Notes under the pieces: model-generated
Databases searched by the model: none
What the model was told of the DNA's origin: nothing
The model's input: only the letters and a program-made list of their open reading frames with translations
Assembly: GCA_021414205.1 (NCBI GenBank)
Contig: JAIOOW010000002.1
Coordinates: 18,692 to 82,691, forward strand
From: Candidatus Anderseniibacteriota bacterium
GTDB taxonomy: Bacteria > Patescibacteriota > Andersenbacteria > UBA10190
Length of the DNA: 64,000 nucleotides
Reading direction: 5' to 3'
Shown: positions 30,612 through 54,235 of the stretch, one piece after another
How positions within the stretch are numbered: the stretch's first letter is position 1
Layout of the letters: each line of letters starts with the position of its first letter
Program-made: the position numbers and the translations under genes

Positions 30612-32774
30612 ATGAAAAAGATAGGTATCATCATACTACTGTCAGCATTATTTCTCTGGTTTGCCACTCCATGGTCTGCCAGTGTCGGTATTATTGCCCT
30701 GCTTAGCTTTATGTTTTTTAGCGTCACTGACTGGGAATCTCGCCCGAGATTATTCCAAGGGGTCGCCATAACTCTCGTCGCCCTCATTGGTCTTTATATA
30801 GTAGGGCCTCGAATTGCGCCGCAACCATGGTCAATTTGCTTTCAAAGAACTGTCGTGCCCGAAACCTTGAAAACACCATGCGAAACAAGCGCGCAGTTTC
30901 CTTATGGAGAAAAAACATTGACGGCAGATACGATTGCTTGGGACACAAATACCATTCCGACGTACTTCATGGATGATAAATTAGCGTTTAACTGGTATCT
31001 ACCGGCGGATCCCAATCGAGAGCACTTGCCTTATAACATGATTCTTGCAAGAACTATCCAGGGCGGTCCGCATCAGCACGTAGCAATTACTAGTTCGTTT
31101 GCAGGGCTCACTGCAACCAGTGACGGCGTCAACACAACTATTCAAAAAAACAAAGAAACGACGCTCTATTTTTCAGAACAGAAGATGTATCAACTACGCA
31201 TAAGCGGTGCTCATATTCGCGACGCATCGGATTCTCTGCACGTTTCTGGAATTAATAATTCATTTTTATATATCTTATTTCACGCAATAAAAAACATTGG
31301 ATACGCAATTTTGTGCCTCCTCATTATTCGTTGTGCGTACCTGCAAGTTATTCGTTTACCACATGAACAGCGATATATGGCAGTCGGTATTGCGGGAATT
31401 CTCGCAATACTCTACCTACTTCCAAGCGAACAATTCGGGGTGCTTGCACTCGCATTGTTTTTTGCGTGGTGCGGGAGAAGAAAAAACATGTTACTGCCTA
31501 TATTGCTATTTGCAATACTTATTGCGCTGTCGTTTGCTCGGTCGTTTATTCCGTATGAGCATGTATACATTAATTACGGAATCCCGTTTCTTACTATACT
31601 AGCAATAATCTGCTCGACATTTTTCAGACAACAAAAAATAAGCATAGTAGTTATTGCGTTATTGCTACTGAACAGCTTTATATTTATTTCGCATACGCAC
31701 CCGTATGGCAGCCTCGTACTATTTACAGGAGGCAATGACGAATTAACGCACGAAGGATTTGCCCGATTAGCCCTTACGGGGCAAACGTGGCGCGACAAGC
31801 TCATTGCGGGAGAAAACTATGCGTTCTACTATCAGCCACTGTATCGTTACATGCTAGCTGGCATGCATGCATTATGGGGAGAATCAATGTTTGGCCCATA
31901 TGTGGTGCAAACATTCCTCACAAGCATTGCATTTTTCACGACGCTTAGATTTTTACGCATATTCAACATTCGATACCTACCGGCACTATTTGCTGTTCTT
32001 TTCATTCTTACCAATTACGTCTACTACGTCTCGTTATTCACGTTGTCGCAAGGCGCATTTCAACAATCAATCGCATTGCCGTTGCTGATTATCTGCTGGA
32101 TTGCAACCCTGTCGATGATATATAAAAAACCCTCCGCTCAATTCGGAATACTGCTTGGCCTTGCATGGGGAGTAGTGTATGCAACGCGAACAGATTTTCT
32201 GCCGTCCCTTCCCATTGTATTTTGCATAACAGCCTACGCAACTTGGAAACAACGCATCCTGCCCTCTTGGATTCTTGGGCTGTCCATTGCGCCGATACTG
32301 GTTATTGCAAGAAATATCATCATCGCGCATCAGGCGGTCTTCATGCCTACATCAGGACTTATTAATCTAACGTCGGAATTTACTCCGCTATTTCCAAATA
32401 CAACAGCACAAGAACTGCAATCACTAGGATACGGAGATTTACTTAAGCACGTATATGCAACATATCACAACAACATAAGCGCGTTATGCATAGCAATTTG
32501 GCATAACCTCAGAGAAAAATTCATAGGAATTATCCCGCCAAGAATTGTACTATGGTACATATCTCCAGTAACTGTTGTATTAGCATTACTACTAAAGCCA
32601 AGTAAGCAGATTGCCGTAATTCTATTATTCGTATTACTTTTCTTTTTAATACTGATTCCCAATATATTTTTTGATCAGCATAACGGCGTTGCGATGTTTG
32701 GATTCTATGACTATATCTTGCTATTATTTTGCGCAATTGCAGGATCGAAATTACTCTATATACTAAAAATATGA
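30612..32774 (+). CDS. GT-C-fold glycosyltransferase (PMT/ArnT-like) with an N-terminal anchored periplasmic domain.
   Basis: 720 aa. Two N-terminal TM helices are followed by a roughly 170-aa soluble domain and then about 11 TM helices. GGNDELTHEGF carries a DE first-loop motif, and YAFYYQPLYRYMLAG resembles PMT/ArnT family proteins. Confidence 0.5.
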   Translation: MKKIGIIILLSALFLWFATPWSASVGIIALLSFMFFSVTDWESRPRLFQGVAITLVALIGLYIVGPRIAPQPWSICFQRTVVPETLKTPCETSAQFPYGEKTLTADTIAWDTNTIPTYFMDDKLAFNWYLPADPNREHLPYNMILARTIQGGPHQHVAITSSFAGLTATSDGVNTTIQKNKETTLYFSEQKMYQLRISGAHIRDASDSLHVSGINNSFLYILFHAIKNIGYAILCLLIIRCAYLQVIRLPHEQRYMAVGIAGILAILYLLPSEQFGVLALALFFAWCGRRKNMLLPILLFAILIALSFARSFIPYEHVYINYGIPFLTILAIICSTFFRQQKISIVVIALLLLNSFIFISHTHPYGSLVLFTGGNDELTHEGFARLALTGQTWRDKLIAGENYAFYYQPLYRYMLAGMHALWGESMFGPYVVQTFLTSIAFFTTLRFLRIFNIRYLPALFAVLFILTNYVYYVSLFTLSQGAFQQSIALPLLIICWIATLSMIYKKPSAQFGILLGLAWGVVYATRTDFLPSLPIVFCITAYATWKQRILPSWILGLSIAPILVIARNIIIAHQAVFMPTSGLINLTSEFTPLFPNTTAQELQSLGYGDLLKHVYATYHNNISALCIAIWHNLREKFIGIIPPRIVLWYISPVTVVLALLLKPSKQIAVILLFVLLFFLILIPNIFFDQHNGVAMFGFYDYILLLFCAIAGSKLLYILKI

Positions 32775-33739
32775 ACGTACTTATTACAGGTGGCGCAGGA
32801 TTTATCGGATCGCATACGGCAAAAGCATTATTGCGACGAGGAGATAACGTGGTTTTATATGACGATTTTAATGACAGATATGATCCGCGCTTAAAAGAAG
32901 CTCGAGTTGCTCATATGTTTGAAGATGGGGATAAGCCCGTCTTAGTACGGGGAGATATTCTGGATCAAGAGCTGCTAGAACAAACGATCAAAGAACACAA
33001 CATAGATTCTGTTATCCACTTGGCTGCATGGGCATCTGTTCAACCCAGTATTGATAATCCGAGAATATATTCCGATGTAAACGTCACCGGAACCGTTTCA
33101 GTACTAGAAGCTTCTCGGAAAAACAATATTAAGAGACTAGTAGTCGCTTCAAGTTCTTCTGTATATGGCGGTATGACGGAAATGCCATTTCGAGAAGATA
33201 TGAACATTATGCACCCTATTTCTCCATACGCAGCCACAAAAGGCGCAACGGAGCTCATGTGCGCAACGTGGAATCATTTATATAATATCCCTACCACTTG
33301 CCTACGCTTTTTTACCGTGTATGGCCCTTGGGGTCGTCCAGAAATGGCAATCTTCTCTTTTACAAAAGATATCCTAGCCGGAAAAACAATTAAAATGCGT
33401 GGAAAAAATACATCTCGAGACTTTACCTATATAGACGATATCGTTTCAGGAGTAGTAGGCGCACTGGATAATGTACAAGGATACAACGTATATAACTTGG
33501 GCGAATCTGACGGCGTACCGCTCCCGAGAATGATCCAAGCTCTTGAATCAGCAATTGGCAAAAAGGCAACCATAGAAGAAGTTGAATTACCTACAGGAGA
33601 CATCCCTGCAACGCTTTCCGATATTTCGAGAGCAAAGAAAGATTTGTCATACAATCCAACTACAAGCATCGAAGAAGGCACGAAAAAATTCGTAGATTGG
33701 TATAGGGAGTGGTATGACCAAATCTTCGTTTCTCAGTAA
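32771..33739 (+). CDS. NAD-dependent epimerase/dehydratase, UDP-glucuronate 4-epimerase-like.
   Basis: MNVLITGGAGFIGSH; the YAATKGATE catalytic YxxxK; RFFTVYGPWGRPEMA, which is diagnostic of the UDP-GlcA 4-epimerase (CapI/Gla) family. Start overlaps the upstream stop (ATGA at 32771-32774). Confidence 0.6.
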   Translation: MNVLITGGAGFIGSHTAKALLRRGDNVVLYDDFNDRYDPRLKEARVAHMFEDGDKPVLVRGDILDQELLEQTIKEHNIDSVIHLAAWASVQPSIDNPRIYSDVNVTGTVSVLEASRKNNIKRLVVASSSSVYGGMTEMPFREDMNIMHPISPYAATKGATELMCATWNHLYNIPTTCLRFFTVYGPWGRPEMAIFSFTKDILAGKTIKMRGKNTSRDFTYIDDIVSGVVGALDNVQGYNVYNLGESDGVPLPRMIQALESAIGKKATIEEVELPTGDIPATLSDISRAKKDLSYNPTTSIEEGTKKFVDWYREWYDQIFVSQ

Positions 33740-35087
33740 CTATTGGTCAGAAATACTGCTGTATACAATTGCTGTCGCATGTCTTGTTACGACAGCTGCT
33801 CAATACCCGCTATCAACTACGTTCCCGATTGGTGGCGATGCGGCAACCCATATTCGCACAGTTCAGCATATTTTTACTGATCCAATTTTCTCCCTACAAA
33901 AAATAGCAAATTCTTGGTACCCAGTTGCATACATATTATTTAGCATAAATGCCATTATCCCTCATGCAAACTGGCCGATCATTTTTTCTTGGTGGATGAC
34001 GCTCGGCCAAGTACTAACCGGCCTAGCACTTGGTCTTTTTGTATACAGACTATCTGGCCCCAAGGCATCCGCAATTGCAATCGCATTATGGGCCATGACT
34101 CCGATTACCATGACTTCTTTTTTTGAAGATGGGACAATGGCGCAATTATGGAGCTTGCCATGGGTCATTCTTTTCTTTGAACGAATGCTGGCAAAATCCT
34201 ACAAGGGCATGGCTCTCTTCGCTTTTCTTGCTCTCTTTTCGCACCCGATTACAGCACTGGTATTAATAGCTACACTCGCCGTATCTGCAATGATATTCGA
34301 TAAACGAGTTGCATTACTTGCGCTTGCTATCACTGCGATAGCAAGTATTGTAATTTATTTCAGGCAGGACATATTGCAAATTTCCAGCCACGAAGCATCG
34401 AAATATGTTCCGGAACTTCTTCACGGATTTTATCTGCCATGGGTGCTTGCGGCTTTATATGGTTGGTTTTGCATCATAAAATCGCACAAGCATCATGCAC
34501 TCCTTCTTACTACCCTTGGAAGCTTTTTCGCAGTAAGCCTCATGCTCGGCGCAAACGATCTTCTGGGTATTGGATTTTGGACGAATAGGCTCGATGCATA
34601 CATCGTCATATTTGTTGTTATCACTGGGGCAACAGGCGTAGCAGAAATCCTTAAAAATATACAGTCACCAATTCTTACAACATGCATTGCATCGCTATTA
34701 TGTACTGGGCTTACCATGTCGGCATTTCACGATAATCAAAATATTTATAAACGCTATGAATCGCCCAGTACCTATAGCCGCATTCATCCGCAAGAATTGG
34801 AATCCCTTGCGTGGATGAACAACAATCTCCCTTCAAATATAACACTATTCACTTCTGGAGAAACAAGGAATTACGAATGGATCCCTGTTCTTACGCACTT
34901 TAGGTGGGCACTTGAAAAAGCCGACGGCAGGACGTTACTCCAGCAAAGCTCTGGGGCGCAAAATCCGGTCGTAGTATTTTTCACAAGAAAAGATAACACC
35001 CCCGACGACGTGAGTAGTAATCAAGCGCAATACACACTCCTGTATAAGAACCCTAGCGTCCAAATATATAAAATCAATTCACTATGA
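33714..35087 (+). CDS. Polytopic membrane protein of the 'GGD' family. Putative glycan polymerase or GT-C-like transferase.
   Basis: 457 aa, around 10 TM helices, PIGGDAATHIR after TM1, and a hydrophilic C-terminal domain. Same architecture as 11718..13760. Confidence 0.4.
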   Translation: MTKSSFLSNYWSEILLYTIAVACLVTTAAQYPLSTTFPIGGDAATHIRTVQHIFTDPIFSLQKIANSWYPVAYILFSINAIIPHANWPIIFSWWMTLGQVLTGLALGLFVYRLSGPKASAIAIALWAMTPITMTSFFEDGTMAQLWSLPWVILFFERMLAKSYKGMALFAFLALFSHPITALVLIATLAVSAMIFDKRVALLALAITAIASIVIYFRQDILQISSHEASKYVPELLHGFYLPWVLAALYGWFCIIKSHKHHALLLTTLGSFFAVSLMLGANDLLGIGFWTNRLDAYIVIFVVITGATGVAEILKNIQSPILTTCIASLLCTGLTMSAFHDNQNIYKRYESPSTYSRIHPQELESLAWMNNNLPSNITLFTSGETRNYEWIPVLTHFRWALEKADGRTLLQQSSGAQNPVVVFFTRKDNTPDDVSSNQAQYTLLYKNPSVQIYKINSL

Positions 35088-35425
35088 AGAAATTAGACGC
35101 CATGCACGCAGCAAGCGCATATAGCATGTTGATTGGGATCGTCTGCGCAGCATTACGGTTAAACATCTGGATAACCCTCATCGCATTTATAGCTGGATTC
35201 ATATGGGCGCTTCGACTGCTAGATATCCGAAAATACGCCCTTATATATTCGATATTCCTATTCGTGCCGATAGTAGCGCTATTTATACGCATTCCAATCC
35301 CAGCATTTCTGCCAGACCTTATCCGTCTTGCAATTACGTTTTTCTTTTGGATACTAATCCTGCTCCTATCCTCATACTTAGTATTGGGACATAAAAAATC
35401 AAAAGAGCAGCGCAGCCGTATATAA
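35084..35425 (+). CDS. Small hydrophobic membrane protein (three or four TM helices), function unknown.
   Basis: The ATG overlaps the upstream TGA (translational coupling). Strongly hydrophobic with K/R flanks. Confidence 0.35.
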   Translation: MKKLDAMHAASAYSMLIGIVCAALRLNIWITLIAFIAGFIWALRLLDIRKYALIYSIFLFVPIVALFIRIPIPAFLPDLIRLAITFFFWILILLLSSYLVLGHKKSKEQRSRI

Positions 35426-36044: not shown

Positions 36045-37316
36045 TTAGCGCTTTAACACTACGCGCCATCTATAAATAACAGCGCAAGCATACAAACTCC
36101 ATAGGCCATAACTCATGATAATGCCCCACAGCATGTACCTATGAAGAAGCGTCGCCAGAGCAGCTACGAATATAAGTCCGCCTACTGCGCTATGAAACGC
36201 CATATACCGGACGCCACTCACGCCATCGCTTGCGATAGCCCACCAATACATTCCGGTAAAAAATTGAATAACAGCAATGACGGCCATCCCGGCGCCGAAC
36301 CAAAACGACAGATAGTACGCATCCCCATATAAGGCCACCGCCGTATTCGTGATAAAAATACCAGCAATTAATAATGGCAAAGCTCCAACAATCGTCCCCT
36401 TGCGCATTCGTTTCCACATTTCTTCACTATCCCCCTCTTGCACTGCAACAGGGAAAAATACGTTAGCAATTAATCCGCCCAAGAACGTCATGACGGTAAT
36501 TGAAACCATATTATACGCGGCAAACTGTCCAAGAAATTGATTCCCGAGCTCGTATTTAATAATGAACTTGGCCGCAAACCCCAGTACGGTTGATAATACA
36601 AGCCAAATGATTGCGCGTGATCCATACGTCCACAATACCTGAAACGCGGAGTGCGAAATTTGCTTAAAGGACGCGTCAAATCGAATCCGTAGCGAATACC
36701 ACAGAATAAGACAGAATCCGCCAAGAAGCGTGGCAAGCATGTAATATGTATATGAGTGCAGCCCTGCGTACGCCATAAACGCAAATACGCCCAGCACCAT
36801 ACATTCCTCAATAACTTTTCCAACTGCCTGGTAACCGAATAGTCCTAATCCGCGCATCATTCCATCGAATAGTTGCTTAATAGCAAGCACTGTTGCGAAC
36901 GCCATAACAATCCCTTTCAAAAAAGGGAAAGGCAGAAGATACGAAACAAGGTTAGCCAATACGATAGTGATAATTAAAAATAAAATCGCGGAAGAAATAA
37001 TATAATTTTGACTCGACACATCTTCCCTCGTAAATGCAAGCGCGCGCACAATGGCAATCTCAAAACTCCACGTAATAAACAGTGCAATGAGTTGAGCTGT
37101 TGCTACTGCGAAACTATATTGCCCATATTGATCTGTTCCAAGAACACGACCGGCCCAAACTGAAACGGTAAACGAAATAATAGCAGCAACAACTCCCCCG
37201 ATCATCGACCAGTGCAATTGCTTCAAGAACTCAATTGTCTTTGGACCCATCGTTACGCCAAAAATCCTTTTATGTATGGAATCCAATATTCCCTCATACA
37301 GCGATAAAATCCCCAT
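36045..37316 (-). CDS. Wzx-type flippase (second copy, PST family).
   Basis: Around 12 TM helices. LKQLHWSMIGGVVAAIISFTVSVWAGRVLGTDQYGQYSFAVATAQLIAL is the typical N-terminus of polysaccharide biosynthesis proteins. The true start may be MGPKT at 37250. Confidence 0.55.
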   Translation of the reverse strand: MGILSLYEGILDSIHKRIFGVTMGPKTIEFLKQLHWSMIGGVVAAIISFTVSVWAGRVLGTDQYGQYSFAVATAQLIALFITWSFEIAIVRALAFTREDVSSQNYIISSAILFLIITIVLANLVSYLLPFPFLKGIVMAFATVLAIKQLFDGMMRGLGLFGYQAVGKVIEECMVLGVFAFMAYAGLHSYTYYMLATLLGGFCLILWYSLRIRFDASFKQISHSAFQVLWTYGSRAIIWLVLSTVLGFAAKFIIKYELGNQFLGQFAAYNMVSITVMTFLGGLIANVFFPVAVQEGDSEEMWKRMRKGTIVGALPLLIAGIFITNTAVALYGDAYYLSFWFGAGMAVIAVIQFFTGMYWWAIASDGVSGVRYMAFHSAVGGLIFVAALATLLHRYMLWGIIMSYGLWSLYACAVIYRWRVVLKR

Positions 37317-37354: not shown

Positions 37355-38389
37355 ATGAAAATTCTTATTACAGGCGGAGCAGGGTTTTTGGGCATAAATC
37401 TAACGAGATACTTACTTGGCAAGGGCCATGAAGTAATTTCATACGATATTGCCGATTTCGATTATCCAGAAAAAAACAAAATTCAAGTTGTTACAAAAGA
37501 TATCAGAAATAAAGCTGATCTGGATGCAGCTATGTCCGGGGTAGATATTGTCGTCCATTGCGCTGCAGCGCTCCCGCTGTATTCCAAAGAGGACATTTAC
37601 TCAACGGACGTAGACGGCACGAGAAACGTATTAACTTCTGCATTCGAACATGGCGCACAACGCGTTGTACATATCTCTTCTACTGCAGTATACGGAATCC
37701 CAGATCATCATCCGCTCTATGAAACGGATACGCTTCAAGGAGTTGGCGCATACGGCGAAGCAAAAATATTAGCGGAACAAGAGTGTGAAAAATTCCGATC
37801 CCAAGGAAAATGCGTTTCCATTATCCGCCCAAAATCATTCGTAGGACCAGAACGACTCGGAGTATTCGCGCTGTTCTATGACTGGGCATTAACAGGCCAC
37901 AACTTCCCCATGATTGGCATGGGAAATAACAAATACCAGCTTCTTGATGTAGATGATTTGTGCGATGCAATCTACTTATGCATCACCCAAGAAGAATCCG
38001 TTGCAAACGATACATATAATATCGGAGCAAAAGAATATACGACTATGAAAGAAGATTACCAAGCAGTGTTAGACAAGGCTGGCCATGGCAAAAAGATTAT
38101 TGGCTTTCCCGCATCTCCTATGATTTGGACGCTTCGACTATTAGAGGCACTGCATATTTCGCCACTGTATAAATGGGTATACGAAACAGCCTCAGTAGAT
38201 TCGTTCGTATCTATTGAGAAGGCGGAAAAGCAATTAGGCTATGCTCCAAAATTCTCGAATAAGCAAGCCCTTGTTAAGAATTATGATTGGTATATTGCAC
38301 ACCTCGCTGATTTTCAAAATAAGAGCGGAGTATCGCATAGAGTCCCCTGGAAGCAAGGAATTCTTGGGATAGTAAAATATCTATTTTAG
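37355..38389 (+). CDS. NAD-dependent epimerase/dehydratase (extended SDR, NDP-sugar modifying).
   Basis: MKILITGGAGFLGINL Rossmann motif and the GAYGEAK catalytic YxxxK. Start set at MKIL; the ORF track extends 120 nt upstream through the divergent Wzx gene. Confidence 0.6.
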   Translation: MKILITGGAGFLGINLTRYLLGKGHEVISYDIADFDYPEKNKIQVVTKDIRNKADLDAAMSGVDIVVHCAAALPLYSKEDIYSTDVDGTRNVLTSAFEHGAQRVVHISSTAVYGIPDHHPLYETDTLQGVGAYGEAKILAEQECEKFRSQGKCVSIIRPKSFVGPERLGVFALFYDWALTGHNFPMIGMGNNKYQLLDVDDLCDAIYLCITQEESVANDTYNIGAKEYTTMKEDYQAVLDKAGHGKKIIGFPASPMIWTLRLLEALHISPLYKWVYETASVDSFVSIEKAEKQLGYAPKFSNKQALVKNYDWYIAHLADFQNKSGVSHRVPWKQGILGIVKYLF

Positions 38390-40691: not shown

Positions 40692-40707
40692 GGTTGTAGT
40701 ATGCCTC

Positions 40708-43279: not shown

Positions 43280-43283
43280 CCTA

Positions 43284-46061: not shown

Positions 46062-46064
46062 TAC

Positions 46065-48173
46065 TTATTTCAGCAATTTCTCCTCTAGTTCTGTAGAAAT
46101 TTTATCCTGAGTATCGTGGTAAAGCAGCTGAACAGCCATTGTTCCTGTTTTCTGCTTCGCTTCAAGCGGATTACCTGTTCGAGAAATATAAATCGGCGTT
46201 GTACGAATATCTGCTTGAGAATATCTAATAGAAGGGTACGGGTCTGTGGTTCCAGCCCCTCGAATACTTACAAATAGATGATCGCCTTTTGCAACCTGTA
46301 CAGAATCCGGAAATAGCACTTGCTCCCATTGCGTATCTTTTACGTCGGTAACTGAAATATTTTTCGTAAATAATGCGGGGCCGTTCAGAGTCTTCGAAAC
46401 ACTCATGACAAACGAACCGGTATCGGACTTTCCAAAATGAGTCGCTGGCAAAAATTGGAAGCCTGCGAGGTTATTATGATCCACGTTTACTTCCTGTATA
46501 CCAATCGTACTTGCATCAAGATTTCCAAGCGTGCTGGTATAGCTCGGCTTCGCATACACCCATGCATATTCTTTCCCCGCAACTTTTACAACGTATACCG
46601 GGATTTGCTTCTTATAATATTCATCAATGAAATCATTAGAGTAATAACTTGGCGCTCGTCCAAACATATTCTGGTACAGAACAATAAATTGCACAGGATT
46701 CTGCGTGTGAGCATTAATATGCAGCACCGTAGCAGACGTGAATGTCCCTAACTCTTCCGGATACCACGAAACCACAACTGCATCAGGATGGTTTGCATTC
46801 AACCAGGCAGCAACTTGATCGAGCCCCTCTCCCCATCCTAATTCCTGACTCAAATTATCCCTAAAAAACGGATTACTATAAGCGATTTCGTACGGATGGT
46901 AGGAAATGATGACAGTGGCAAGGTAAACAACACAGATGAAAGCAGCTATCTTGTCATTCCCGCGAAGGCGAGAATCCAGACGTGGGTTCCGGATCAGGTC
47001 CGGGATAACAGACGCTATCCACATAACTCCATATGCAGCTAGTATGTCTAATGCGAAAAATGCCGCTAACACATAGCGATCCCCCTTCTTTGCGCCCAGC
47101 GTCATCATAATCGTGAATCCGATAAGATATACAGCTATTAATAGCATTTCTTTCGGCATTTTCTTTTTTGACACCAAAACAATCACCCCAGCAAGCCCTA
47201 TGATTCCGAAGACGAGCGTTACTGGATTCGATCGGTCAAGCAACGCATATGGATAATGCATTGGATCAAGATTGTAATCTTCCTCAGAATCGTGCGGAGT
47301 AACCACGGCATCTGAAATATCACGCTTCAACTCCAATACATTCCCAGAAGGATTTGGCACCCATAACAATGCAGGCCAAATAAGAAGCGTAATAACTACG
47401 CCCATCAGCACCCACGTAACAGCATCTCGAATTCTATCGCGTAAAAATGGCCACGAAATCATCTTTTTCGGATGATATACAGCTAACGCAACAATAATGA
47501 ATGGCAAAATAAATATGGCAGGTATTTTCGTAAGAATCGCCAGCACGGAAAGCACGGCGCTTGCGATAAGCCACGGGCGAGTAAGGTAGCGCGCATAGAG
47601 CATGCTCGCCAGCACAGCAAGCGTTAAAAAGCCACCCATAAGCACGTCTACGTGGACCACTCTCGAGTATCCAATAATAAACGGATCAAGTGTAATAAAG
47701 AGTGTCGCCAAAACAGCAAGAAAACGATTCCTTAGAATGAGTAGCAACAATACAAAGATTGCCGGGATTGCCAGCGAGTTTAATAATGCGATAGAAAATT
47801 GGGTAATTTTCACAAAATAGATTAAATTCGTATCCGCAAATTGAACATGGGAAACGGCTGACTTAAACATGACGGCAAGGCCAGATGCCCACAGCGTCGT
47901 AACGCCTGGATGAGTCGTCTGCAACATGTCGTTAAACCGCAAATCATGAAATGCGCGTACGAATTCATACGACCTGCCTATCCAATTTTTTTCATCTGCG
48001 GTTAAAAACGTTCCCAAACCCAATACTCTCGGCAAAAAAGCAATAAGAAACAATCCGACTGCCAAATATGCGTCTATTTTATGCCGTTTTAACAACGCTA
48101 AAATCATGCAAAAAGTGTACCATAAAAAAAAGAAGCTCCTGCAAGCTGGAACTTTCCATGCTTGCAGGAGCAT
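46065..48173 (-). CDS. GT-C-fold glycosyltransferase, PMT/ArnT (GT39/GT83)-like, with a roughly 300-aa C-terminal periplasmic domain.
   Basis: GTFLTADEKNWIGRSYEF (DE motif in loop 1), HPGVTTLW, and around 11 TM helices. Carries the in-frame GC-rich palindromic insertion at 46954..47005. Confidence 0.6.
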   Translation of the reverse strand: MLLQAWKVPACRSFFFLWYTFCMILALLKRHKIDAYLAVGLFLIAFLPRVLGLGTFLTADEKNWIGRSYEFVRAFHDLRFNDMLQTTHPGVTTLWASGLAVMFKSAVSHVQFADTNLIYFVKITQFSIALLNSLAIPAIFVLLLLILRNRFLAVLATLFITLDPFIIGYSRVVHVDVLMGGFLTLAVLASMLYARYLTRPWLIASAVLSVLAILTKIPAIFILPFIIVALAVYHPKKMISWPFLRDRIRDAVTWVLMGVVITLLIWPALLWVPNPSGNVLELKRDISDAVVTPHDSEEDYNLDPMHYPYALLDRSNPVTLVFGIIGLAGVIVLVSKKKMPKEMLLIAVYLIGFTIMMTLGAKKGDRYVLAAFFALDILAAYGVMWIASVIPDLIRNPRLDSRLRGNDKIAAFICVVYLATVIISYHPYEIAYSNPFFRDNLSQELGWGEGLDQVAAWLNANHPDAVVVSWYPEELGTFTSATVLHINAHTQNPVQFIVLYQNMFGRAPSYYSNDFIDEYYKKQIPVYVVKVAGKEYAWVYAKPSYTSTLGNLDASTIGIQEVNVDHNNLAGFQFLPATHFGKSDTGSFVMSVSKTLNGPALFTKNISVTDVKDTQWEQVLFPDSVQVAKGDHLFVSIRGAGTTDPYPSIRYSQADIRTTPIYISRTGNPLEAKQKTGTMAVQLLYHDTQDKISTELEEKLLK
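46954..47005. repeat. GC-rich imperfect palindromic element (dRS3/REP-like architecture) inserted in-frame in the GT-C gene.
   Basis: The plus strand reads gtcATTCCCgcgaaggcGAGAATcc...ccggatcaggtccgg, in the ATTCCC-N8-G(A/G)GAAT form plus a CCGG-N7-CCGG palindrome. It encodes the hydrophilic insert IPDLIRNPRLDSRLRGND between hydrophobic helices. Local GC is far above the gene average. Confidence 0.35.
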
Positions 48174-48786: not shown

Positions 48787-50205
48787 TTATTTTCTCTCTG
48801 TTATGCGGAAATTTATGAGTTGTGGACAAATTGTTCCCGATATTTCTGTCTTCGCGTCGCCTTGTATGCGATAGTCAACGGTGTATTTGGCCTGGTTTTT
48901 ATGATCCTCATCCATAAACTGAATACCTGAATACTGCCTGCTCCAAAATTCTAGCCTGTTATAAATATGAACATTTTCAGAAGTAACCGGCCCAAGACCG
49001 CTTAGACATGCAAATAGTTGCCTAGTATCGACTAACGCAGAGGCGCTGTCAGTTCGATTACCAAGTGAGAATAGATTTGTTGAACCCCCAGCATTCAAAT
49101 ACGGAACGGCAATTCCAAATATCGCCCACACAATAAGAGCTGTGCATATCAGCCAAGGTATTATAGTAGCAACAATAGCGCTGCGTTTTCGAACCAATGC
49201 AATAATAGCTTCTAGTCCAATACCCGAAAGCATCCAAAACCCAATAACAAATACAGTCATGTATCGCAAACTGAATCGATCGATGATGCGTAATAAAACG
49301 AACATATGAATTATCAGGGCTATCGCAATAATCCATGCGATTTTTCTGTGTTTTGAAAAGAATAAGGGGATAACTGCGAGCACGCTGAGCAACATTGTCA
49401 CAATCCCCATGCTAATAGGTGACAGTTCTTTGCCCGTATACGATGCTATATAAGAGGAACCAGAAATTATTTCCGGAAATAAGGATGGAAATGTAGAAAT
49501 ACGATCAGAAAATGTTTCTGCAATTGCTTTTTGACTTCCCTGATCGTCCGGATACAGCTGGATAATAGCAAACTGCATGGCAAACCCCGCAATAAACCCA
49601 ATAATAATTGGCCATGCAGATATAATCATCTTTGGTTTTCGAACAATACATATAATTCCGCATACAACAATCGCAATAAGCGTCGGCAAAAATAATAGAT
49701 GATTCGCAAGCCCAAGCCCACCGGCTAGGCCCGCTAGTAAGAATTTATGCCTCCACGAAGATTGCAACAGCCATATGATTACAACAGCAAACAACGGTAA
49801 CAGCGTGACTGCCCAGCCAAGCCGTTGTTGTGTGATATATATTGGCGAAAAAGTGAGAAATAGTAGAGGGGTCAAGCTCTGATATTTGCCCAAATACTTT
49901 ATAAGTAAATATGCGCTGATTATAAAAAACAGCGCAGATGCCAAAAACGTAACACTTCTAAGCGCAAACGCCGTGTATCCAAACACTACTACAAAGGGTA
50001 CTCGCGCATAGTCTATGCCAGCACCGATATACGACCGCTCCCCCAGCACTTCTATCTTTTTCTGATCCAGCATATGGAACACATTCTCACCTTCATGAGC
50101 CTCGTCACCCATTAATCCCGGAATTGTGGTCAAATATGCGCCGTTTAATGCAAGAAATACGACAAATAGCGCTACATGAAATTTGTATGCAATTAATTTC
50201 AACAT
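48787..50205 (-). CDS. GT-C-fold glycosyltransferase (ArnT/PMT-like).
   Basis: TIPGLMGDEAHEGENVFHML (DE first-loop motif) followed by about 12 TM helices. 472 aa. Confidence 0.5.
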   Translation of the reverse strand: MLKLIAYKFHVALFVVFLALNGAYLTTIPGLMGDEAHEGENVFHMLDQKKIEVLGERSYIGAGIDYARVPFVVVFGYTAFALRSVTFLASALFFIISAYLLIKYLGKYQSLTPLLFLTFSPIYITQQRLGWAVTLLPLFAVVIIWLLQSSWRHKFLLAGLAGGLGLANHLLFLPTLIAIVVCGIICIVRKPKMIISAWPIIIGFIAGFAMQFAIIQLYPDDQGSQKAIAETFSDRISTFPSLFPEIISGSSYIASYTGKELSPISMGIVTMLLSVLAVIPLFFSKHRKIAWIIAIALIIHMFVLLRIIDRFSLRYMTVFVIGFWMLSGIGLEAIIALVRKRSAIVATIIPWLICTALIVWAIFGIAVPYLNAGGSTNLFSLGNRTDSASALVDTRQLFACLSGLGPVTSENVHIYNRLEFWSRQYSGIQFMDEDHKNQAKYTVDYRIQGDAKTEISGTICPQLINFRITERK

Positions 50206-50224: not shown

Positions 50225-52429
50225 ATGAATTGGCGAGCATGGATAGTACCTGGCATAGTGATTGTAGTCATCGGAATATTTTTTATTCCCGTTATTCAGC
50301 ACAGGGTACTTTCCTATGGAATTGATTCGTACGCAACCCACGCGCCGTTATTTACCGGACATACTGCTTCGCAAGCGTTTACTACGCAATCAAATATTAT
50401 TGGCATCGGTACAATTCTCGTTAATCTCCATCACGCAAAGCAACTCACGCCAGTTACCGTGACTGTATTCAATACAGCATCGAACACACTTCTGGTATCA
50501 AAAACGATTCTTCCAATAGATATTCACGACGATCAATTTGCATACATTAATTTTCCAAGTACGCCGATTCCAGCAAATACCCCGATTAAAATAGAATACT
50601 CTGCTCCAAACTCTACCGTTCAAAATCCAGTTGGAGTGCGATTCGGATCCAATAAGGAAGATATATCGCTTGCGCTTATAGAGAAAGTTCCTGTGTGGCG
50701 AGCAATACTCACAGTTGCTCACAATCGTCAAAACGATTGGAAATATGTCGCACCCGTGAGCATATTCGCACTACTCGTTTGCATTCCCGCATTATTCCCA
50801 ACAAAAAGATCCATAGCATTTTGGATAGCAACGGCTATTATTGCAATTTCTGCATACGCAATCATGCTCTGGATCATCCCACAATTCGGAGGCGTAAGTG
50901 GCGGCGACCCATACGACTATTTAGGCATCGCTCAATCGATACAGCACGGTCAAAATCCCTTCTTAAACACAAAACGACTCCCAGGATATCCGCTCTTACT
51001 TGTTCCAACGTTTGCATCCAGAGCTTTTGACGATCAATTCGTGATGCGCGTTATTACAAGCACTGCCGGAATAATAGGAATCATTTTAATCGCACTCATT
51101 GCTCGCACTCTTACTTCTTCATTGATCCCCGCTATCGGCTCTGCAGCCATTCTCGCATTTCAGAAAGACTACATCTGGACAGCAATGAGGCCGGAACCGT
51201 ATGCAGTATATGCAATGCTATTGCTTCTTGCGCTATATCTATTCTTTTTATCTTATCAGCAGCAGTCCAAGCTTTGGATACGTATCGCATTTGGCCTATG
51301 CTTAGGATATGCCGCCATGACTCGCCAAGAGGGATTCGTTCTTGCGGCAGTACTTGGATCATGCTCTTTTGCCTATGAGCTAGCGCGCGGAAAAAGCATT
51401 GTTCGTTTTATAAGTATGTATGTACCAGCTTTTGCAATCGTGCTTCCTTTTTTCATAACAAACACTATTGCATACCATAATCCATTCTATCTGAAATACC
51501 TACAGGACGAACGATTACAACCCGTAGATTCATTCCTTGCATTCCAAGATTCTCTAGGGGCAACGTGGGGAATAGTCGGATCAATGTGGAAAGCATCCTG
51601 GAGCCAGCTTGAGCGACTATCACTCACATCAGTCCCATTACTATCAGGCATCATCAGCATGTGGGGATGGTATGCATATATTCGATATAATAAGAACAAG
51701 ACTGTTGGAATGATCGTAACAGCGCTTCTCTTGCTCATGAGTGCTGGAATGATACTGGCGAGCGTATATGCAAAAGCAAATTTTAGCGGACTATTTACGC
51801 AGATAAGTGCAGGATTTATCCTCGCCAGCATTCCCGTATTTTTCATAGAAACAAAATGGAAAGGTGTAGTTATCGCTCTTGTTTTATTGTCGCAAATCGG
51901 AATTGCAACATGGTTTCATCCATTTCCCAAGCATTACCAGCAATCTTATCCGTTAATTGTGCTAATGATCGGCACAGCATTGCTTGCAAGAGCTCCAAAT
52001 AAAAAACTTCTTTTTTCATACGCCGCATTAATAACATCTATCCTACCGTTTCTATTAATAAGCACGATGCTAGGACAACAATTAAATACTGCAATAGATA
52101 AGCAAAATCAAGACACTGCATTAGATTCTGTAACATACAGAGCTGCACGTTATGCGCGCAACCTTCCTCAGCCAATAGGTTTCGATCAAGCATACTTGCC
52201 AGCGCGTCTATATTTCGATCCTGATGCAATATACTTTCCTGCTGAAGATAACCCAACGCCCCAAATGGAAAAAGACTGGCTCGCAAAAAATCCTATCAAG
52301 ACGATGATAGTAACAAATGCTGAGAAAATATTCTCAAAACCATATCCGAATTGGACGGTAGTAAAAACATTCAAGGCAGCAGGGAATGACGATAAAATTT
52401 TTGAAAGTATTGTATATTCAGTACATTGA
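50225..52429 (+). CDS. GT-C-like polytopic membrane protein with an N-terminal anchored periplasmic domain.
   Basis: The TM anchor is followed by a roughly 170-aa soluble domain and a multi-TM core. GGVSGGDPYDYLGIAQ is an acidic first-loop motif. Start set at MNWRAW to avoid overlap with the divergent gene; the ORF track starts at 50183. Confidence 0.45.
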   Translation: MNWRAWIVPGIVIVVIGIFFIPVIQHRVLSYGIDSYATHAPLFTGHTASQAFTTQSNIIGIGTILVNLHHAKQLTPVTVTVFNTASNTLLVSKTILPIDIHDDQFAYINFPSTPIPANTPIKIEYSAPNSTVQNPVGVRFGSNKEDISLALIEKVPVWRAILTVAHNRQNDWKYVAPVSIFALLVCIPALFPTKRSIAFWIATAIIAISAYAIMLWIIPQFGGVSGGDPYDYLGIAQSIQHGQNPFLNTKRLPGYPLLLVPTFASRAFDDQFVMRVITSTAGIIGIILIALIARTLTSSLIPAIGSAAILAFQKDYIWTAMRPEPYAVYAMLLLLALYLFFLSYQQQSKLWIRIAFGLCLGYAAMTRQEGFVLAAVLGSCSFAYELARGKSIVRFISMYVPAFAIVLPFFITNTIAYHNPFYLKYLQDERLQPVDSFLAFQDSLGATWGIVGSMWKASWSQLERLSLTSVPLLSGIISMWGWYAYIRYNKNKTVGMIVTALLLLMSAGMILASVYAKANFSGLFTQISAGFILASIPVFFIETKWKGVVIALVLLSQIGIATWFHPFPKHYQQSYPLIVLMIGTALLARAPNKKLLFSYAALITSILPFLLISTMLGQQLNTAIDKQNQDTALDSVTYRAARYARNLPQPIGFDQAYLPARLYFDPDAIYFPAEDNPTPQMEKDWLAKNPIKTMIVTNAEKIFSKPYPNWTVVKTFKAAGNDDKIFESIVYSVH

Positions 52430-52432
52430 CGT

Positions 52433-54235
52433 ATGGATACTTCACTCGCATTTGAAACATACCAGGGTGCATTGGCAGGGATTATCTTTGGCATCGGAGC
52501 ATTACTTGCTGCATTATTGCCAAAATACAAATGGTTCGCATCTGCAATTCTGCTCGTACTCATAACCCCGATCGCGCTTGCTCCTTTTTGGTTCAGCGCA
52601 GACAAATTGGGTATTTCCGACTGGGATTACTACTTTTCAATGCACACGAATCTGTGGCAAACAATTACTCAGTTTCATCAGTTTCCATTATGGAATCCGT
52701 TTACCTGTGGAGGAACATCCGCATTAGGCGATCCGGAATTTCCTGTATTATCTCCCCTATTCTTACTCGAATTGGCTTTTGGAACTCCGGCAGGCCTGAA
52801 GCTTTCCATCTATTTCGCAACTGCAATCGGAGCTTTAGGCATGCTGTTTTTAGCAAAAAAGATGAACATGTCGCCACTTGCCGGACTCACAGCAGGAATG
52901 GGCCTCGCATTCGGCTCCGTTAATTTACTGGAAATAGTCGAGGGCCATCAAAATATTTTGGCGTTCATGTATATTCCATGGATATTTTTAACCTGGTATA
53001 TCGCATACCAATCTGAATTAAAAAAGAAATACCTCTATACCGTCATAACGGCCATTTTATTAACGCTCGTCTTTTTCCAGGGCGGATTATATTTGCTCAT
53101 GTATATGACGGCTGCGTTCATTATCTTACCGTTCCTCGTATCAAACCCGAAAAAAGCAATCTTCATCACCCTTACAGCGGGAATATTAGCGATGGGGTTG
53201 GCATCGGTAAAATTAATCCCTGTGATTTATTGGGTACACGAATTTCAAGATAAGGCATATGCAAGCTCTGCATACACGCTGTCATCAATGGATAAAATTT
53301 TACTTGGTAGATACTTACATGGCGTAGAAAATGTTATTCCAAACCAAGGAAGCGGCTGGCATGAATACGGTGCATACATCGGCCCTGTGATGCTTGTGCT
53401 GGCATTACTTGGATTTATCACCCATCGCAAAAATAGATTCGCGCAAGCACTGCTTATTACTGGGGCAATTGCATTATTTGGATCATCATTTGGACCATAC
53501 CTAAAACCATTCTTCGACCACGTACCATTTATTCCAAGATCGAACATAGCAAGAATTATTTTATTTACCATTATCCCTCTGTGCATGTTATCCGGGATGG
53601 GAATTGACTGGCTTCAAAAAAAATCCAGAATTTTAAAATACATAGCAATCATTCTTATAACACTTGCAGCAGTTGATCTCATGTCACTTGCCTATCCTTT
53701 AGCATCACAAGCATTCGTCTTGCCTCAAGAACCTATTACTCTTGGACAGGCGCAATTCCCGATTCAATACGATCCATTTAATTACAAAACACGATACGAG
53801 GGCGTCGACTATACTCGAGCATACGAGGCAACCTTAAAAGGGTATGGGACGCTTTCGTATTGCTCCGTACTTGGGCCGGACCCGGCAGTAAGTATTATCA
53901 CGGACGAGGGAAACAGCTACGTATCATTCCCAAGCAATCATGACGCCAGCTTTACAATAAATTCCTGGGCGCCAAATAAAGTAATCATCACCGTTACGTC
54001 GCCAATTGCGTCATCGGCAATAATAAACGCAAACTATGCGGACGGATGGATGGTAAGCGGCAACCCTGCTAAAAATATTGCAAATAAAGTGGGTACGCAA
54101 ATTCCAGCAGGAACCACACAACTAACATTTCAATATGTTCCGAAAGGCATGCTTCCAGGAATAGCAGTCACTGTACTAGCGACAATTATTACATTACTCG
54201 TACTTCTCTTATCGGCTGTACGAAGAGAAAAGTAA
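52433..54235 (+). CDS. YfhO-like polytopic membrane glycosyltransferase candidate.
   Basis: N-terminal FPLWNPFTCGGTSALGDP and C-terminal NANYADGWMVSGNPAKN...IPAGTTQLTFQYVP + TM. Confidence 0.55.
   Translation: MDTSLAFETYQGALAGIIFGIGALLAALLPKYKWFASAILLVLITPIALAPFWFSADKLGISDWDYYFSMHTNLWQTITQFHQFPLWNPFTCGGTSALGDPEFPVLSPLFLLELAFGTPAGLKLSIYFATAIGALGMLFLAKKMNMSPLAGLTAGMGLAFGSVNLLEIVEGHQNILAFMYIPWIFLTWYIAYQSELKKKYLYTVITAILLTLVFFQGGLYLLMYMTAAFIILPFLVSNPKKAIFITLTAGILAMGLASVKLIPVIYWVHEFQDKAYASSAYTLSSMDKILLGRYLHGVENVIPNQGSGWHEYGAYIGPVMLVLALLGFITHRKNRFAQALLITGAIALFGSSFGPYLKPFFDHVPFIPRSNIARIILFTIIPLCMLSGMGIDWLQKKSRILKYIAIILITLAAVDLMSLAYPLASQAFVLPQEPITLGQAQFPIQYDPFNYKTRYEGVDYTRAYEATLKGYGTLSYCSVLGPDPAVSIITDEGNSYVSFPSNHDASFTINSWAPNKVIITVTSPIASSAIINANYADGWMVSGNPAKNIANKVGTQIPAGTTQLTFQYVPKGMLPGIAVTVLATIITLLVLLLSAVRREK

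Follow-up and report, generated by a model that had tools for sequence, protein, structure and literature searches.

The array and its families

The window analysed here, a 64 kb stretch of DNA from Candidatus Andersenbacteria (Patescibacteria/CPR), carries an array of polytopic membrane proteins, which we designate by the first coordinate of their genes. One of them, 30612, has a 100% identical counterpart in a Candidatus Andersenbacteria MAG. Nine of them occupy 17,721 of the 23,624 bp between positions 30612 and 54235 (75%), and three lie upstream, namely a truncated ORF at 1..1324 and the genes at 11718..13760 and 14830..16734; together the twelve make up 36% of the window. This density of GT-C and YfhO-type candidates (nine in 24 kb, twelve in the window) had been claimed in the initial annotation, and it holds at these coverages. 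All of the ORFs between 30612 and 54235 (9/9) were found at the coordinates originally given for them, with ~5-17 hydrophobic segments each according to a Kyte-Doolittle scan, which is crude and over-splits adjacent helices. The ATG starts of 41120 and 50225 are also given by an independent gene caller for the source contig, a Logan contig of 139.7 kb. Between six and seven GT-C genes follow one another directly.

Five members are assigned by their sequences to a YfhO/PTPS_related-type group: the window-start ORF, 11718, 38386, 43284 and 52433. The 925-aa product of 43284..46061 (+ strand) is a YfhO-family GT-C with a Pfam YfhO match above the cut-off (2.6e-16, 59.6 bits), a large extracytoplasmic region that includes a shared beta-rich domain, a weak match to the PgfM2 model (5e-7) and a full-length hhalign link of 97.6% to the 46065 family. 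The ORF at 1..1324 (+ strand, frame 2), truncated at the first position of the window, retains the 3' part of a gene for a YfhO-family GT-C (Pfam YfhO, E=1.1e-11); it covers C-terminal YfhO model positions 766-835 and aligns to the C-terminus of 43284 (hhalign E=8e-15). The proteins encoded at 52433..54235 (+ strand, 600 aa) and 38386..40095 (- strand, 569 aa) are both of the YfhO/PTPS_related type, and 9/25 members of their family match YfhO while 5/25 match PTPS_related. The former has an invariant D63 in the loop SDWDYYF and is linked to the 43284 family (hhalign, 3.3e-23), and the latter is linked to the families of 52433 (hhalign E 4.8e-65; BLASTP 24% identity, 2e-28) and 43284 (hhalign 99.4%), its own match to the YfhO C-terminus being weak (E=0.01). 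The C-terminal YYPGW signature initially reported for four YfhO-like proteins is literal in 38386 alone, with looser versions in the other three (YYPNW...VPAGNH, LPQW...VPAGSH and YADGW...IPAG); its counterpart in the Pfam YfhO model is the C-terminal stretch at positions 766-835, which counts against membership of a non-enzymatic family.

The fifth member of this group, 11718..13760 (- strand, 680 aa), has no direct match in Pfam or NCBIfam and carries an invariant GGDPWQTMWRF after TM1. Its family profile, built from 6/8 metagenome homologues, aligns by hhalign to the families of 43284 (96.2%), 52433 (94.8%) and 46065 (90.6%). This protein had been grouped with 33714 in a single 'GGD family', a grouping that we abandon, since 11718 is YfhO-like (96% to 43284) and reaches 0.2% against 33714 (hhalign).

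A further five members (30612, 41120, 46065, 48787 and 50225) form, by sequence comparison, a PMT_2/GT39-like group, and their earlier description as PMT/ArnT-like was borne out by orthologues and relatives that match PF13231/PF02366. The 30612..32774 protein (+ strand) belongs to the PMT_2 superfamily (PMT_2 matched by 37/60 of its superfamily) and carries an extracytoplasmic PA14-like domain behind an N-terminal TM anchor; its structure model is weak (pLDDT 56), and the top 7 structure matches are all GT-C enzymes, ArnT included. The acidic pair described as lying in its first loop (GGNDELTHEG, residues 373-382) sits further along the chain, where the GT-C module and not the whole protein has its first loop, behind an extension made up of the TM anchor, the PA14-like domain and six helices. 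Two PMT_2-like GT-C proteins combine an N-terminal TM with a beta-rich domain, extracytoplasmic in 41120, and their families (labelled 41078 and 50183) are linked at 98.2% by hhalign. One, 41120..43279 (+ strand), has SDD after core TM1, a PMT_2 match of its own below the cut-off (E=1.1e-3) and orthologues in 5 loci; the other, 50225..52429 (+ strand), matches the NCBIfam LA_3751/LA_3752 putative GT (2.3e-7), and 3/12 of its orthologues match PMT_2 (best 9.7e-8). The DE or DD motif ascribed to the first loop of 50225 is absent, and the protein instead carries an SGGD motif whose G-G-D is invariant.

The 46065..48173 protein (- strand, 702 aa), a PMT/PMT_2 (GT39-like) GT-C with invariant D60 and E61 and a C-terminal region containing the shared beta-rich domain, has weak matches of its own (PMT 7.5e-3, Agl23 1e-5); within its family, PMT_2 is matched by 31/35 and PMT by 22/35 (best 8e-12), and the only PDB matches of the family profile are Pmt4 and Pmt1. 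The compact 48787..50205 protein (- strand, 472 aa), of the PMT_2 (GT39-like) type, has invariant G33, D34, E35, E38 and G39 and is linked to the 46065 family (hhalign 92.3%). Among its 106 homologues, about 40 match PF13231, and the source annotation of two reads 'glycosyltransferase family 39 protein'.

The third group comprises a compact STT3/ArnT-like protein and its probable relative. The former, 33714..35087 (+ strand, 457 aa), is Andersenbacteria-specific, with invariant residues that include G40 G41 D42, E138 D139, H177 P178 and R292 and a small C-terminal domain resembling that of STT3/AglB. Of the orphan families, it alone yielded a structure model of high confidence, and this model matches GT-C enzymes only (TM-score 0.43-0.62), while transporters score at the level of noise (~0.1). 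Neither a WWDXG motif nor an STT3 Pfam match (PF02516) was found in it. The latter, 14830..16734 (+ strand, 634 aa, ~12 TM), has a conserved LP..D.Y.W loop and no Pfam match; its probable GT-C membership follows from an hhalign link to the 33714 family (96.6%, E 6e-10) that is limited to residues 434-533 against 270-382.

Across the array, a direct significant Pfam match was obtained for 2/12 proteins, in both cases to YfhO (43284 and the window-start ORF). The sequences of the other ten do not themselves reach a curated Pfam/NCBIfam cut-off, and their GT-C placement is transitive, through orthologues or relatives, or comes from profile-profile comparison (hhalign). Links among the array families range from 92 to 100%, whereas the non-GT-C membrane controls (two Wzx proteins and one DUF975 protein, all polytopic and from the same window, compared with all family profiles) reach at most 3.7%. 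In every family, an Asp directly after TM helix 1 of the GT-C module is invariant or nearly so. Fold and family membership, probable in the case of 14830, and the conserved acidic loops are shown by these comparisons, and the earlier GT-C interpretation of the array is supported.

Conservation of the array

The array was compared with 32 loci from related genomes, taking one genome per GTDB species in the collection. These loci hold 2-10 GT-C genes each (4-10 in loci of 18-21 kb, covering ~33-85% of the locus), so the density is not peculiar to this contig. The order 52433-50183-48787-46065-43284(-41078), in which 50183 and 41078 correspond to 50225 and 41120, is repeated in several of them. 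Paralogues within the window are <25% identical and most are undetectable to one another by BLASTP, while orthologues in related genomes are ~40-90% identical and in the same order. As judged from these sequences, the paralogues are ancient and not recent duplicates, and synteny extends across the lineage. We consider it likely that the array is a lineage-conserved set of at least 11, probably 12, distinct GT-C-fold membrane glycosyltransferases.

Candidate donor synthases, flippases and the surrounding island

Two GtrB/DPM1-like lipid-sugar synthases had been proposed for the locus; both GT2 genes are present, but only one is a full-length homologue. The protein encoded at 60347..61291 (- strand; Pfam GT2 3.5e-34) is an ArnC/GtrB/DPMS-type polyprenyl-phosphate glycosyltransferase that has TM helices in its C-terminal part, matching ArnC (1.2e-43, residues 4-300), GtrB sll0501 (9e-26, 4-302) and DPMS (4e-15) in the PDB. 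It is probably the maker of a lipid-linked monosaccharide donor, and its homologues adjoin or lie within the GT-C array in two related loci (L031 and L020). The second, 13728..14471 (+ strand; Pfam Glycos_transf_2 1.6e-22), has a DPMS/ArnC-like catalytic domain (best PDB matches DPMS 3.6e-10 and ArnC 1.7e-9) and lacks the GtrB membrane hairpin. It is the divergent neighbour of 11718, a pairing kept in 6/7 of the loci that include the upstream side.

Both Wzx/MOP-type flippases are present, including the second one noted initially: 29282..30562 (- strand; Pfam Polysacc_synt_3 1e-10, Polysacc_synt 2e-8) and 36045..37316 (- strand; Polysacc_synt 2.8e-15), which share 26% identity. The polysaccharide-type genes of the island comprise eight GT4, four GT2, one GT9, one TagF-like enzyme and the two Wzx, and GC content is uniform along the window (0.40-0.45). 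No GtrA/GtcA-type flippase, initiating phosphoglycosyl transferase or match to the Wzy or WaaL families was found in the window.

Function of the array and known systems

Transporters or other non-enzymatic polytopic proteins with acidic motifs arising by chance are a highly improbable explanation of the array. Most members have no significant direct family match and single-sequence PDB searches returned nothing relevant; however, orthologues match GT-C Pfam families, the 33714 model resembles GT-C enzymes and not transporters, and real non-GT-C polytopic proteins of the window stay at or below 3.7% against the family profiles, so that this explanation is already contradicted for 11/12 members, 14830 being the exception. 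There is likewise very little chance that the genes form a recently amplified, fast-diverging cassette, built by tandem duplication or from serotype-conversion modules gained by horizontal transfer, with no fixed multi-enzyme system. They are adjacent, and extra copies of the 46065, 48787 and 52433 types occur in some related genomes, yet the low identity of the paralogues, the syntenic orthologues and the uniform GC content already contradict such an origin.

We think it unlikely that the array serves mainly in protein O-glycosylation. In this reading, PMT-like enzymes would add mannose or other sugars to S-layer proteins, to pilins or to disordered, Ser/Thr-rich parts of membrane proteins, much as PMTs do in fungi and actinobacteria and PgfM-type enzymes in streptococci. 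In its favour, five members fall in the PMT_2/PMT superfamily, the 46065 family profile matches nothing in the PDB other than protein O-mannosyltransferases, 43284 weakly matches a streptococcal PgfM2 model, and a paper in the YfhO/GT-C literature deals with streptococcal Ser/Thr-rich disordered regions that are glycosylated. However, PMT_2 is also found in the polysaccharide and teichoic-acid modifiers GtlB, GacL, CsdD and YkcB (PMC8035078), and the family therefore does not indicate a protein acceptor; moreover, the island is rich in polysaccharide-type genes, the PA14-like domain of 30612 is of a carbohydrate-binding type, and no obvious Ser/Thr-rich target gene lies within the window. It is also rather unlikely that some members, with 33714 and 14830 as Wzy-, WaaL- or OST-like candidates, are polymerases, ligases or oligosaccharyltransferases acting on polyprenyl-diphosphate oligosaccharides flipped by Wzx. 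The presence of two Wzx alongside numerous cytoplasmic GT4/GT2 enzymes points to a lipid-linked repeat unit and hence to a polymerase or ligase, for which the window has no Wzy or WaaL match, and since there are two candidate lipid-sugar synthases for twelve transferases, some members may use such oligosaccharides. Against this, 33714 lacks both WWDXG and an STT3 Pfam match, and the link between 14830 and 33714 spans only ~100 residues.

The best reading is that the locus would encode a lineage-conserved extracytoplasmic glycosylation line, for which we infer the donor, the flippase, the acceptor and the sequence of steps as follows. The cytoplasmic GT-A enzymes 60347 (ArnC/GtrB-like) and probably 13728 (DPMS-like) would put sugars, supplied as nucleotide sugars from the same island, onto polyprenyl phosphate, and the lipid-linked sugars would be flipped over the membrane, possibly via the two Wzx-type flippases. 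Each GT-C would then use the conserved Asp of its first extracytoplasmic loop to transfer a sugar, on the outer side of the membrane, to a cell-envelope glycopolymer during or after its assembly and/or to proteins of the cell surface, with the acceptor perhaps held by the appended PA14-like and shared beta-rich domains. S-layer proteins, pilins and a teichoic-like polymer, put forward in the initial annotation, would be candidate targets. As donor synthases are few and transferases many, it is probably the acceptor or the linkage, and not the donor, that sets the enzymes apart.

Multi-component GT-A/flippase/GT-C schemes, including ones with Wzx-type flippases and a TM-less GT-A with a helper protein, have been described (PMC8035078; PMC11898649). 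The Gram-positive CsbB/GtcA/YfhO, GtlA/GtlB, CsdAB/CD/EF and GacI/J/K/L systems likewise join a GT-A synthase, here 60347, with YfhO- and PMT_2-type GT-C enzymes (PMC8035078; PMC11898649). The divergent GT2/YfhO-like pair 13728/11718 resembles csbB-yfhO, and the streptococcal Gac system offers a precedent for a TM-less GT-A and Wzx-type flippases. In contrast, known organisms have one to three GT-A/GT-C pairs, scattered in the genome, at a ratio of ~1:1, whereas ~12 GT-C genes, six to seven of them contiguous, share two candidate synthases in 64 kb here, with no GtrA-type flippase found in the window and in a small-genome CPR host.

In mycobacteria and corynebacteria, the GT-C series EmbA/B/C, AftA-D, PimE and Mpt consists of non-orthologous enzymes that draw on few polyprenyl-phosphate donors and act sequentially outside the membrane. 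The array resembles this series in that many non-orthologous GT-C enzymes would share few donors and several have carbohydrate-binding modules, and AftA, AftB, AftD, PimE and EmbA are among the structural matches. However, none of its members is orthologous to Emb, Aft or Mpt at the sequence level, its families being YfhO, PMT_2 and a compact type that is novel, and the Emb/Aft/Mpt genes are dispersed and not clustered. STT3, AglB and PglB, at roughly 600-850 aa, are longer than 33714 (457 aa), which lacks their WWDXG motif and PF02516 match; ArnT scores nearly as well as these proteins for 33714, and thus OST activity is not implied. The lipid A pathway offers a further parallel, with ArnC the closest solved relative of 60347 and ArnT among the top structural matches of 33714, but it has one transferase where the array has many, and ArnA/B/D homologues were not identified. 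To our knowledge, CPR bacteria have no outer membrane and hence no lipid A. Based on our findings, we suggest that an elaborate cell-surface glycan is made or decorated at the outer face of the membrane in this tiny-genome, candidate-phylum bacterium.

Placement of the proteins in the GT-C superfamily

The nine large membrane ORFs that the initial annotation had reported at 30612-54235 are all present, with the coordinates and strands it had assigned, and they fill 75% of this 23.6 kb region. Genes are named here by window coordinate, and the starts of 41120 and 50225 match independent gene calls on the source contig (139.7 kb, from the Logan assembly of run SRR15633504). Adding 11718-13760, 14830-16734 and the truncated ORF that opens the window brings the number of candidates to twelve, and these fill 36% of the window. 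All twelve are strongly hydrophobic and polytopic, with ~5-17 hydrophobic segments each in a crude Kyte-Doolittle scan, which over-splits adjacent helices; this agrees with the GT-C fold, for which roughly 8-13 TM helices are expected. Orthologue scans, profile-profile links and a structural model of 33714 provide good support that eleven of the twelve are GT-C superfamily proteins, as had been claimed, and make 14830 a probable one. They form three groups: five proteins of YfhO/PTPS_related type (the window-start ORF 1-1324, 11718, 38386, 43284 and 52433), five of divergent PMT_2 type (30612, 41120, 46065, 48787 and 50225) and a compact STT3/ArnT-like type (33714 and its probable relative 14830). 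All are new members of an already known superfamily, many of them strongly divergent.

Direct Pfam and NCBIfam searches with the twelve proteins were surprisingly weak. Curated thresholds were exceeded only by 43284 (YfhO, 2.6e-16, 59.6 bits) and the window-start ORF (YfhO, 1.1e-11, 44.4 bits), the gathering cut-off of Pfam YfhO (PF09586) being 28.5 bits. Sub-threshold matches were obtained for 38386 (YfhO C-terminus, 14.6 bits), 41120 (also labelled 41078; PMT_2), 46065 (PMT and Agl23), 50225 (also labelled 50183; LA_3751/2 putative glycosyltransferase) and 52433 (PTPS_related). Neither 52433 nor 11718 matched YfhO directly, and 30612, 33714, 48787, 11718 and 14830 had no Pfam or NCBIfam match even at permissive thresholds. 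We therefore gathered relatives of the window proteins and scanned these instead.

In the family shared by 52433 and 38386, YfhO was matched by 9 of 25 members and PTPS_related by 5 of 25, and the two proteins aligned with each other in hhalign at E 4.8e-65. The same method linked 38386 to 43284 (99.4%), 43284 to 46065 (97.6%, nearly full-length) and 11718, whose profile was built from six of the eight metagenome homologues found, to 43284 (96.2%), 52433 (94.8%) and 46065 (90.6%). The C-terminal signature of the YfhO-like proteins aligns with the Pfam YfhO model at positions 766-835; the YYPGW string once ascribed to four of them is literally present in 38386 alone, the other three carrying looser versions. 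A proposed 'GGD family' of 33714 and 11718 did not hold up, as the two show no family-level kinship (hhalign 0.2%) and 11718 is YfhO-like; a G-G-D or G-D-E turn ahead of the catalytic Asp is nevertheless seen in several members that are far apart in other respects.

No PMT_2-type protein of the window itself reaches the gathering cut-off of Pfam PMT_2 (PF13231, 26.1 bits) or PMT (PF02366, 22.7 bits), models of the CAZy GT39/GT83 type: 41120 scored 19.7 bits (as 41078) and 46065 16.3 bits, and 30612, 48787 and 50225 had no direct match to either model. We then matched to these models the relatives found at E < 1e-10 to a window protein or its profile. PMT_2 was detected in 31 of 35 members of the 46065 family (PMT in 22 of 35) and in 3 of 12 members of the 50225 family (best 1e-7). 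Among the homologues of 48787 (E < 1e-77), about 40 of 106 matched PF13231; in two cases the source gives the name 'glycosyltransferase family 39 protein'. In hhalign, 46065 aligned with 48787 (92.3%), and 41120 is linked to PMT_2 by its alignment with the 50225 family (98.2%). A search of 5.8 billion proteins gave no more than seven close homologues of 30612, and a protein annotated as hypothetical in a MAG of Candidatus Andersenbacteria matches it at 100% identity; the profile of 30612 recovered 406 relatives across its C-terminal half in an exhaustive search of 1.84 billion representatives, and 37 of 60 sampled relatives contained PMT_2. Since hhalign against the 48787 family gave 33% for 30612 and 10% for 33714, we note that 30612 was placed through this exhaustive search with its Pfam scan and through structure, and 33714 through structure. 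Single-sequence PDB searches with 46065, 41120, 50225 and 43284 returned noise only, and the 48787 family profile had zero matches in the PDB. Judged by sequence, the five proteins belong to the PMT_2 superfamily as divergent members and are better not counted in the curated family.

Catalytic loops, predicted structure and accessory domains

Our data demonstrate, in addition to fold and family, a conserved acidic loop: in each family an acidic residue that directly follows the opening helix of this module type is invariant or near-invariant. This holds for D42 in 33714, D60 and E61 in 46065, D34 and E35 in 48787, the GGD of SGGD in 50225, D63 in 52433, GGD in 11718, both Asp of SDD in 41120 and D-x-Y-x-W in 14830. 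The second Asp of LDD in 43284 is kept in at least 90% of its family, and D376 and E381 of 30612 are conserved across 60 distant relatives. Of the PMT/ArnT-like proteins to which a DE or DD first-loop motif had been attributed, 50225 carries SGGD instead, and the acidic motif of 30612 (residues 373-382) comes only after a long N-terminal extension. Helix counts predict that the conserved loop is extracytoplasmic. As non-GT-C controls from the same window, both Wzx proteins and one membrane protein of the DUF975 family were compared with all eleven family profiles, and none exceeded 3.7%.

The family of 33714 comprises 28 homologues that contain no Pfam domain, and all seven of those with a named source are from Andersenbacteria. 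The AlphaFold2 model of 33714 is confident (pLDDT 84.4, pTM 0.84) and contains ~11 membrane helices and a small alpha/beta domain. Its structural matches were ArnT (17.5), AglB (17.1), ALG12 (16.6) and PglB (15.3), followed by AftA, ALG9, DPY19, Pmt4, Pmt2, AftB, AftD, PIG-M, ALG3, PimE and others. Three-dimensional likeness to solved GT-C enzymes was found in both members modelled, the other being 30612, for which the model is weak. The hhalign match of 14830 to 33714 (96.6%) spans only ~100 residues. Directly downstream of 33714 lies a small ORF (35084-35425, +, 113 aa, ~4 TM), and an ORF of this type also follows the 33714 homologue in the related locus L021 (18251-18583); no family could be assigned to it, and its product could be a small flippase or membrane partner.

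A beta-rich extracytoplasmic domain of ~120-150 aa is common to 41120, 50225, 46065 and 43284, and an HMM of this domain matches only these four proteins in the window. It is N-terminal in 41120 (41246-41659, residues 57-194 of 41078) and 50225 (50327-50707, residues 49-175 of 50183), C-terminal in 46065 (46098-46556, residues 540-692) and in the middle of 43284 (44856-45203, residues 525-640), and these differing positions indicate domain shuffling. Its profile had no significant sequence match in the PDB. Two bitopic proteins of unknown function, each with a TM helix at either end and a beta-rich middle, are encoded among the GT-C genes (35334-36026 and 40077-40691, both -). Homologues of the former occur in six related loci, those of the latter in one (L002); as carriers of the common beta-rich domain they are unsupported (1% and 13.6%, respectively).

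Ahead of their GT-C module, 30612, 41120 and 50225 each have an anchor helix at the N-terminus and then a beta-rich extracytoplasmic domain. Hydropathy and predicted secondary structure give an even number of helices between this domain and the catalytic loop, so that the two would face the same side. In the 30612 superfamily, a PA14-type domain, a type of carbohydrate-binding domain, occupies residues ~70-215, between the N-terminal anchor and the GT-C core. Solved PA14 domains align with the superfamily profile in this N-terminal extracytoplasmic part (8.5e-11), and 9 of the 60 sampled relatives contain PA14; 30612 itself has no direct PA14 match.

Conservation and genomic setting of the array

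A scan with the 48787 family, limited to one genome per GTDB species, yielded 32 loci. Their informative record titles name Andersenbacteria or Anderseniibacteriota (the NCBI taxonomy treats Candidatus Andersenbacteria as phylum Candidatus Anderseniibacteriota and assigns it to the Parcubacteria and Patescibacteria groups), and many others are a generic 'Saccharibacteria' or 'bacterium'. Many of the species-representative MAGs with the array (L002, L007, L009-L011, L014, L017-L019, L021-L024, L026, L028, L030 and L031) bear the title 'uncultured Candidatus Saccharibacteria bacterium', apparently a generic or mistaken name introduced by automated submission.

Orthologue sets for most window genes were recovered from the ORFs of the 32 loci, with the GT-C orthologues sharing roughly 40-90% identity. 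Every 18-21 kb locus contains 4-10 GT-C genes, and the order 52433-50183-48787-46065-43284(-41078, -38386) is kept in several genomes (for example, L002, L006, L008, L012, L017 and L019). The upstream module, consisting of GT4 genes, 11718, the GT2 gene 13728, 14830 and the GT4 gene 16719, is also kept in metagenome contigs. Together, the orthologues, the recurrent gene order and the conserved upstream module demonstrate that the lineage carries the array as a fixed trait, and that neither recent amplification nor faulty assembly accounts for it. BLASTP within the window detected only two similarities, one between 38386 and 52433 at 24% identity and the other confined to the short YfhO signature at the C-terminus, and we therefore conclude that the GT-C genes are old paralogues. 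Recent tandem duplication, raised as a question by the initial annotation, is ruled out by this low similarity among paralogues and by the presence of orthologues elsewhere.

MreB and MurA are encoded at 54.2-56.6 kb, and the pair adjoins the array in six related genomes (L002, L006, L016, L017, L019 and L033). A PEGA-domain/beta-propeller membrane protein completes this block (window 54244-57883) in five of the six, the sixth locus stopping inside MurA; in other genomes an ArnC-like/GT4/SDR block adjoins the array in its place. The nearby ORF 57901-58419 (+) is probably no gene: its matches in other loci run antisense to genes homologous to the SDR gene 58225-59214, which marks it as a shadow ORF.

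GC content is even along the window (0.40-0.45), and by its gene content the full 64 kb is a single large glycan-biosynthesis island. In Pfam scans it encodes eight GT4, four GT2 and one GT9 glycosyltransferases, two polysaccharide deacetylase-type proteins (one DUF2334-type), methyltransferases, four SDR epimerase/dehydratases, several nucleotidyltransferases and SIS, ribulose-phosphate-epimerase and HAD genes. The island also contains an asparagine synthase, an AsnB-type glutamine amidotransferase (20280-22136, +); sugar acids or peptide stems are common targets of amidation by enzymes of this type. The genes at 24473-29241 and 5858-6940, encoding a HAD phosphatase, a pair of proteins with nucleotidyltransferase domains (one of them 552 aa long), a ribulose-phosphate 3-epimerase, a SIS-domain isomerase and the GT9 (heptosyltransferase family) protein, resemble a nucleotide-heptose or related phosphosugar pathway supplying the island. 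The ORF 2123-3316 has a C-terminal match (2e-7) to TagF-like CDP-glycerol glycerophosphotransferases, which hints that one product or acceptor is a teichoic-acid-like polymer.

Donor supply, possible products and significance

Two GtrB/DPM1-like synthases had been proposed to feed the array. One, 60347, is demonstrably a full-length ArnC/GtrB homologue, matching three solved enzymes through the C-terminal membrane helices: ArnC (1.2e-43), GtrB sll0501 (9e-26) and archaeal dolichol-phosphate mannose synthase (4e-15). The other, 13728, has a catalytic domain of DPMS/ArnC type and lacks the membrane hairpin. With 60347, a GT-A synthase is encoded together with GT-C proteins, as in multi-component glycosylation systems, and its homologues adjoin the GT-C array in L031 and lie within it in L020. 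The adjacency of 13728 and the YfhO-like 11718 is also kept: the two are divergently adjacent in six of the seven loci that include the upstream side, an arrangement like that of csbB-yfhO in Bacillus. A scan of all window ORFs with 150 aa or more, plus two smaller called genes, detected no GtrA-type flippase (PF04138). A second Wzx flippase had been claimed, and Pfam indeed identifies two Wzx-type genes in the window (29282-30562 and 36045-37316, both -). The multi-component scheme described in Gram-positive bacteria admits both Wzx-type flippases and a TM-less GT-A enzyme with a small membrane partner (PMC8035078; PMC11898649).

For the donor, flippase, acceptor and order of action, we infer the following scheme. 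The synthase 60347, and probably 13728, would load nucleotide sugars made by the island onto polyprenyl phosphate, and the lipid-linked sugars would then be flipped across the membrane. On the outer face, the GT-C enzymes would use them to extend or branch an envelope glycopolymer, and possibly surface proteins too, with the PA14-like and beta-rich domains binding the acceptor. The small number of synthases relative to transferases suggests many acceptor or linkage specificities acting on few donors, which is the logic of the mycobacterial Emb/Aft/Mpt enzymes.

Two other readings concern the substrate and the target. At least one member, with 33714 and 14830 as the candidates, might use diphosphate-linked oligosaccharides in the manner of polymerase-, ligase- or OST-like enzymes. 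The oligosaccharyltransferases STT3, PglB and AglB do resemble the 33714 model; this likeness appears to be at the level of the fold only, the sequence containing no WWD motif (the WWDXG of STT3 is absent) and having no match to the STT3 model (PF02516) at E up to 10, and we regard such a substrate as unlikely. That the array is mainly directed at proteins is possible, and surface proteins do have a place in the scheme proposed here; we do not favour this reading and judge it quite improbable. Returning to an envelope glycopolymer as the main product, we suggest, tentatively and with considerable doubt, that Andersenbacteria, for all the small size of a CPR genome, build a complex envelope heteropolysaccharide largely outside the membrane by an ordered dozen of GT-C enzymes, as a lineage-defining surface structure for attachment to hosts or particles. 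If true, this would be a CPR counterpart of the mycobacterial arabinogalactan/lipoarabinomannan machinery, and the 457-aa STT3-like 'mini' enzyme 33714, the PA14-fused PMT_2 enzymes and the shuffled beta-rich acceptor-binding domain would represent new GT-C subfamilies.

We found no described counterpart of this arrangement, in which a CPR lineage keeps about a dozen GT-C genes in one contiguous, conserved array together with two candidate synthases. Full-text literature searches returned no paper linking GT-C enzymes with CPR or Patescibacteria, and earlier CPR genome papers mention multiple 'dolichol-phosphate mannosyltransferase' annotations and nothing more. The array brings no new mechanism; it is solid, conserved and relevant to the CPR cell surface. 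It adds several GT-C subfamilies missed by current domain libraries, of which the compact 33714 could serve as a minimal model for the GT-C fold, and it offers specific genes on which glycan analysis, metatranscriptomics and heterologous expression can focus.

CPR/Patescibacteria are abundant, mostly uncultivated and thought to live attached to other cells, and to our knowledge their surfaces are almost unknown. Their genomes are generally small, which makes the investment seen here notable: a conserved block that devotes over one third of 64 kb to glycosyltransferases of the outer face implies a central role for an elaborate surface glycan in how this lineage lives.
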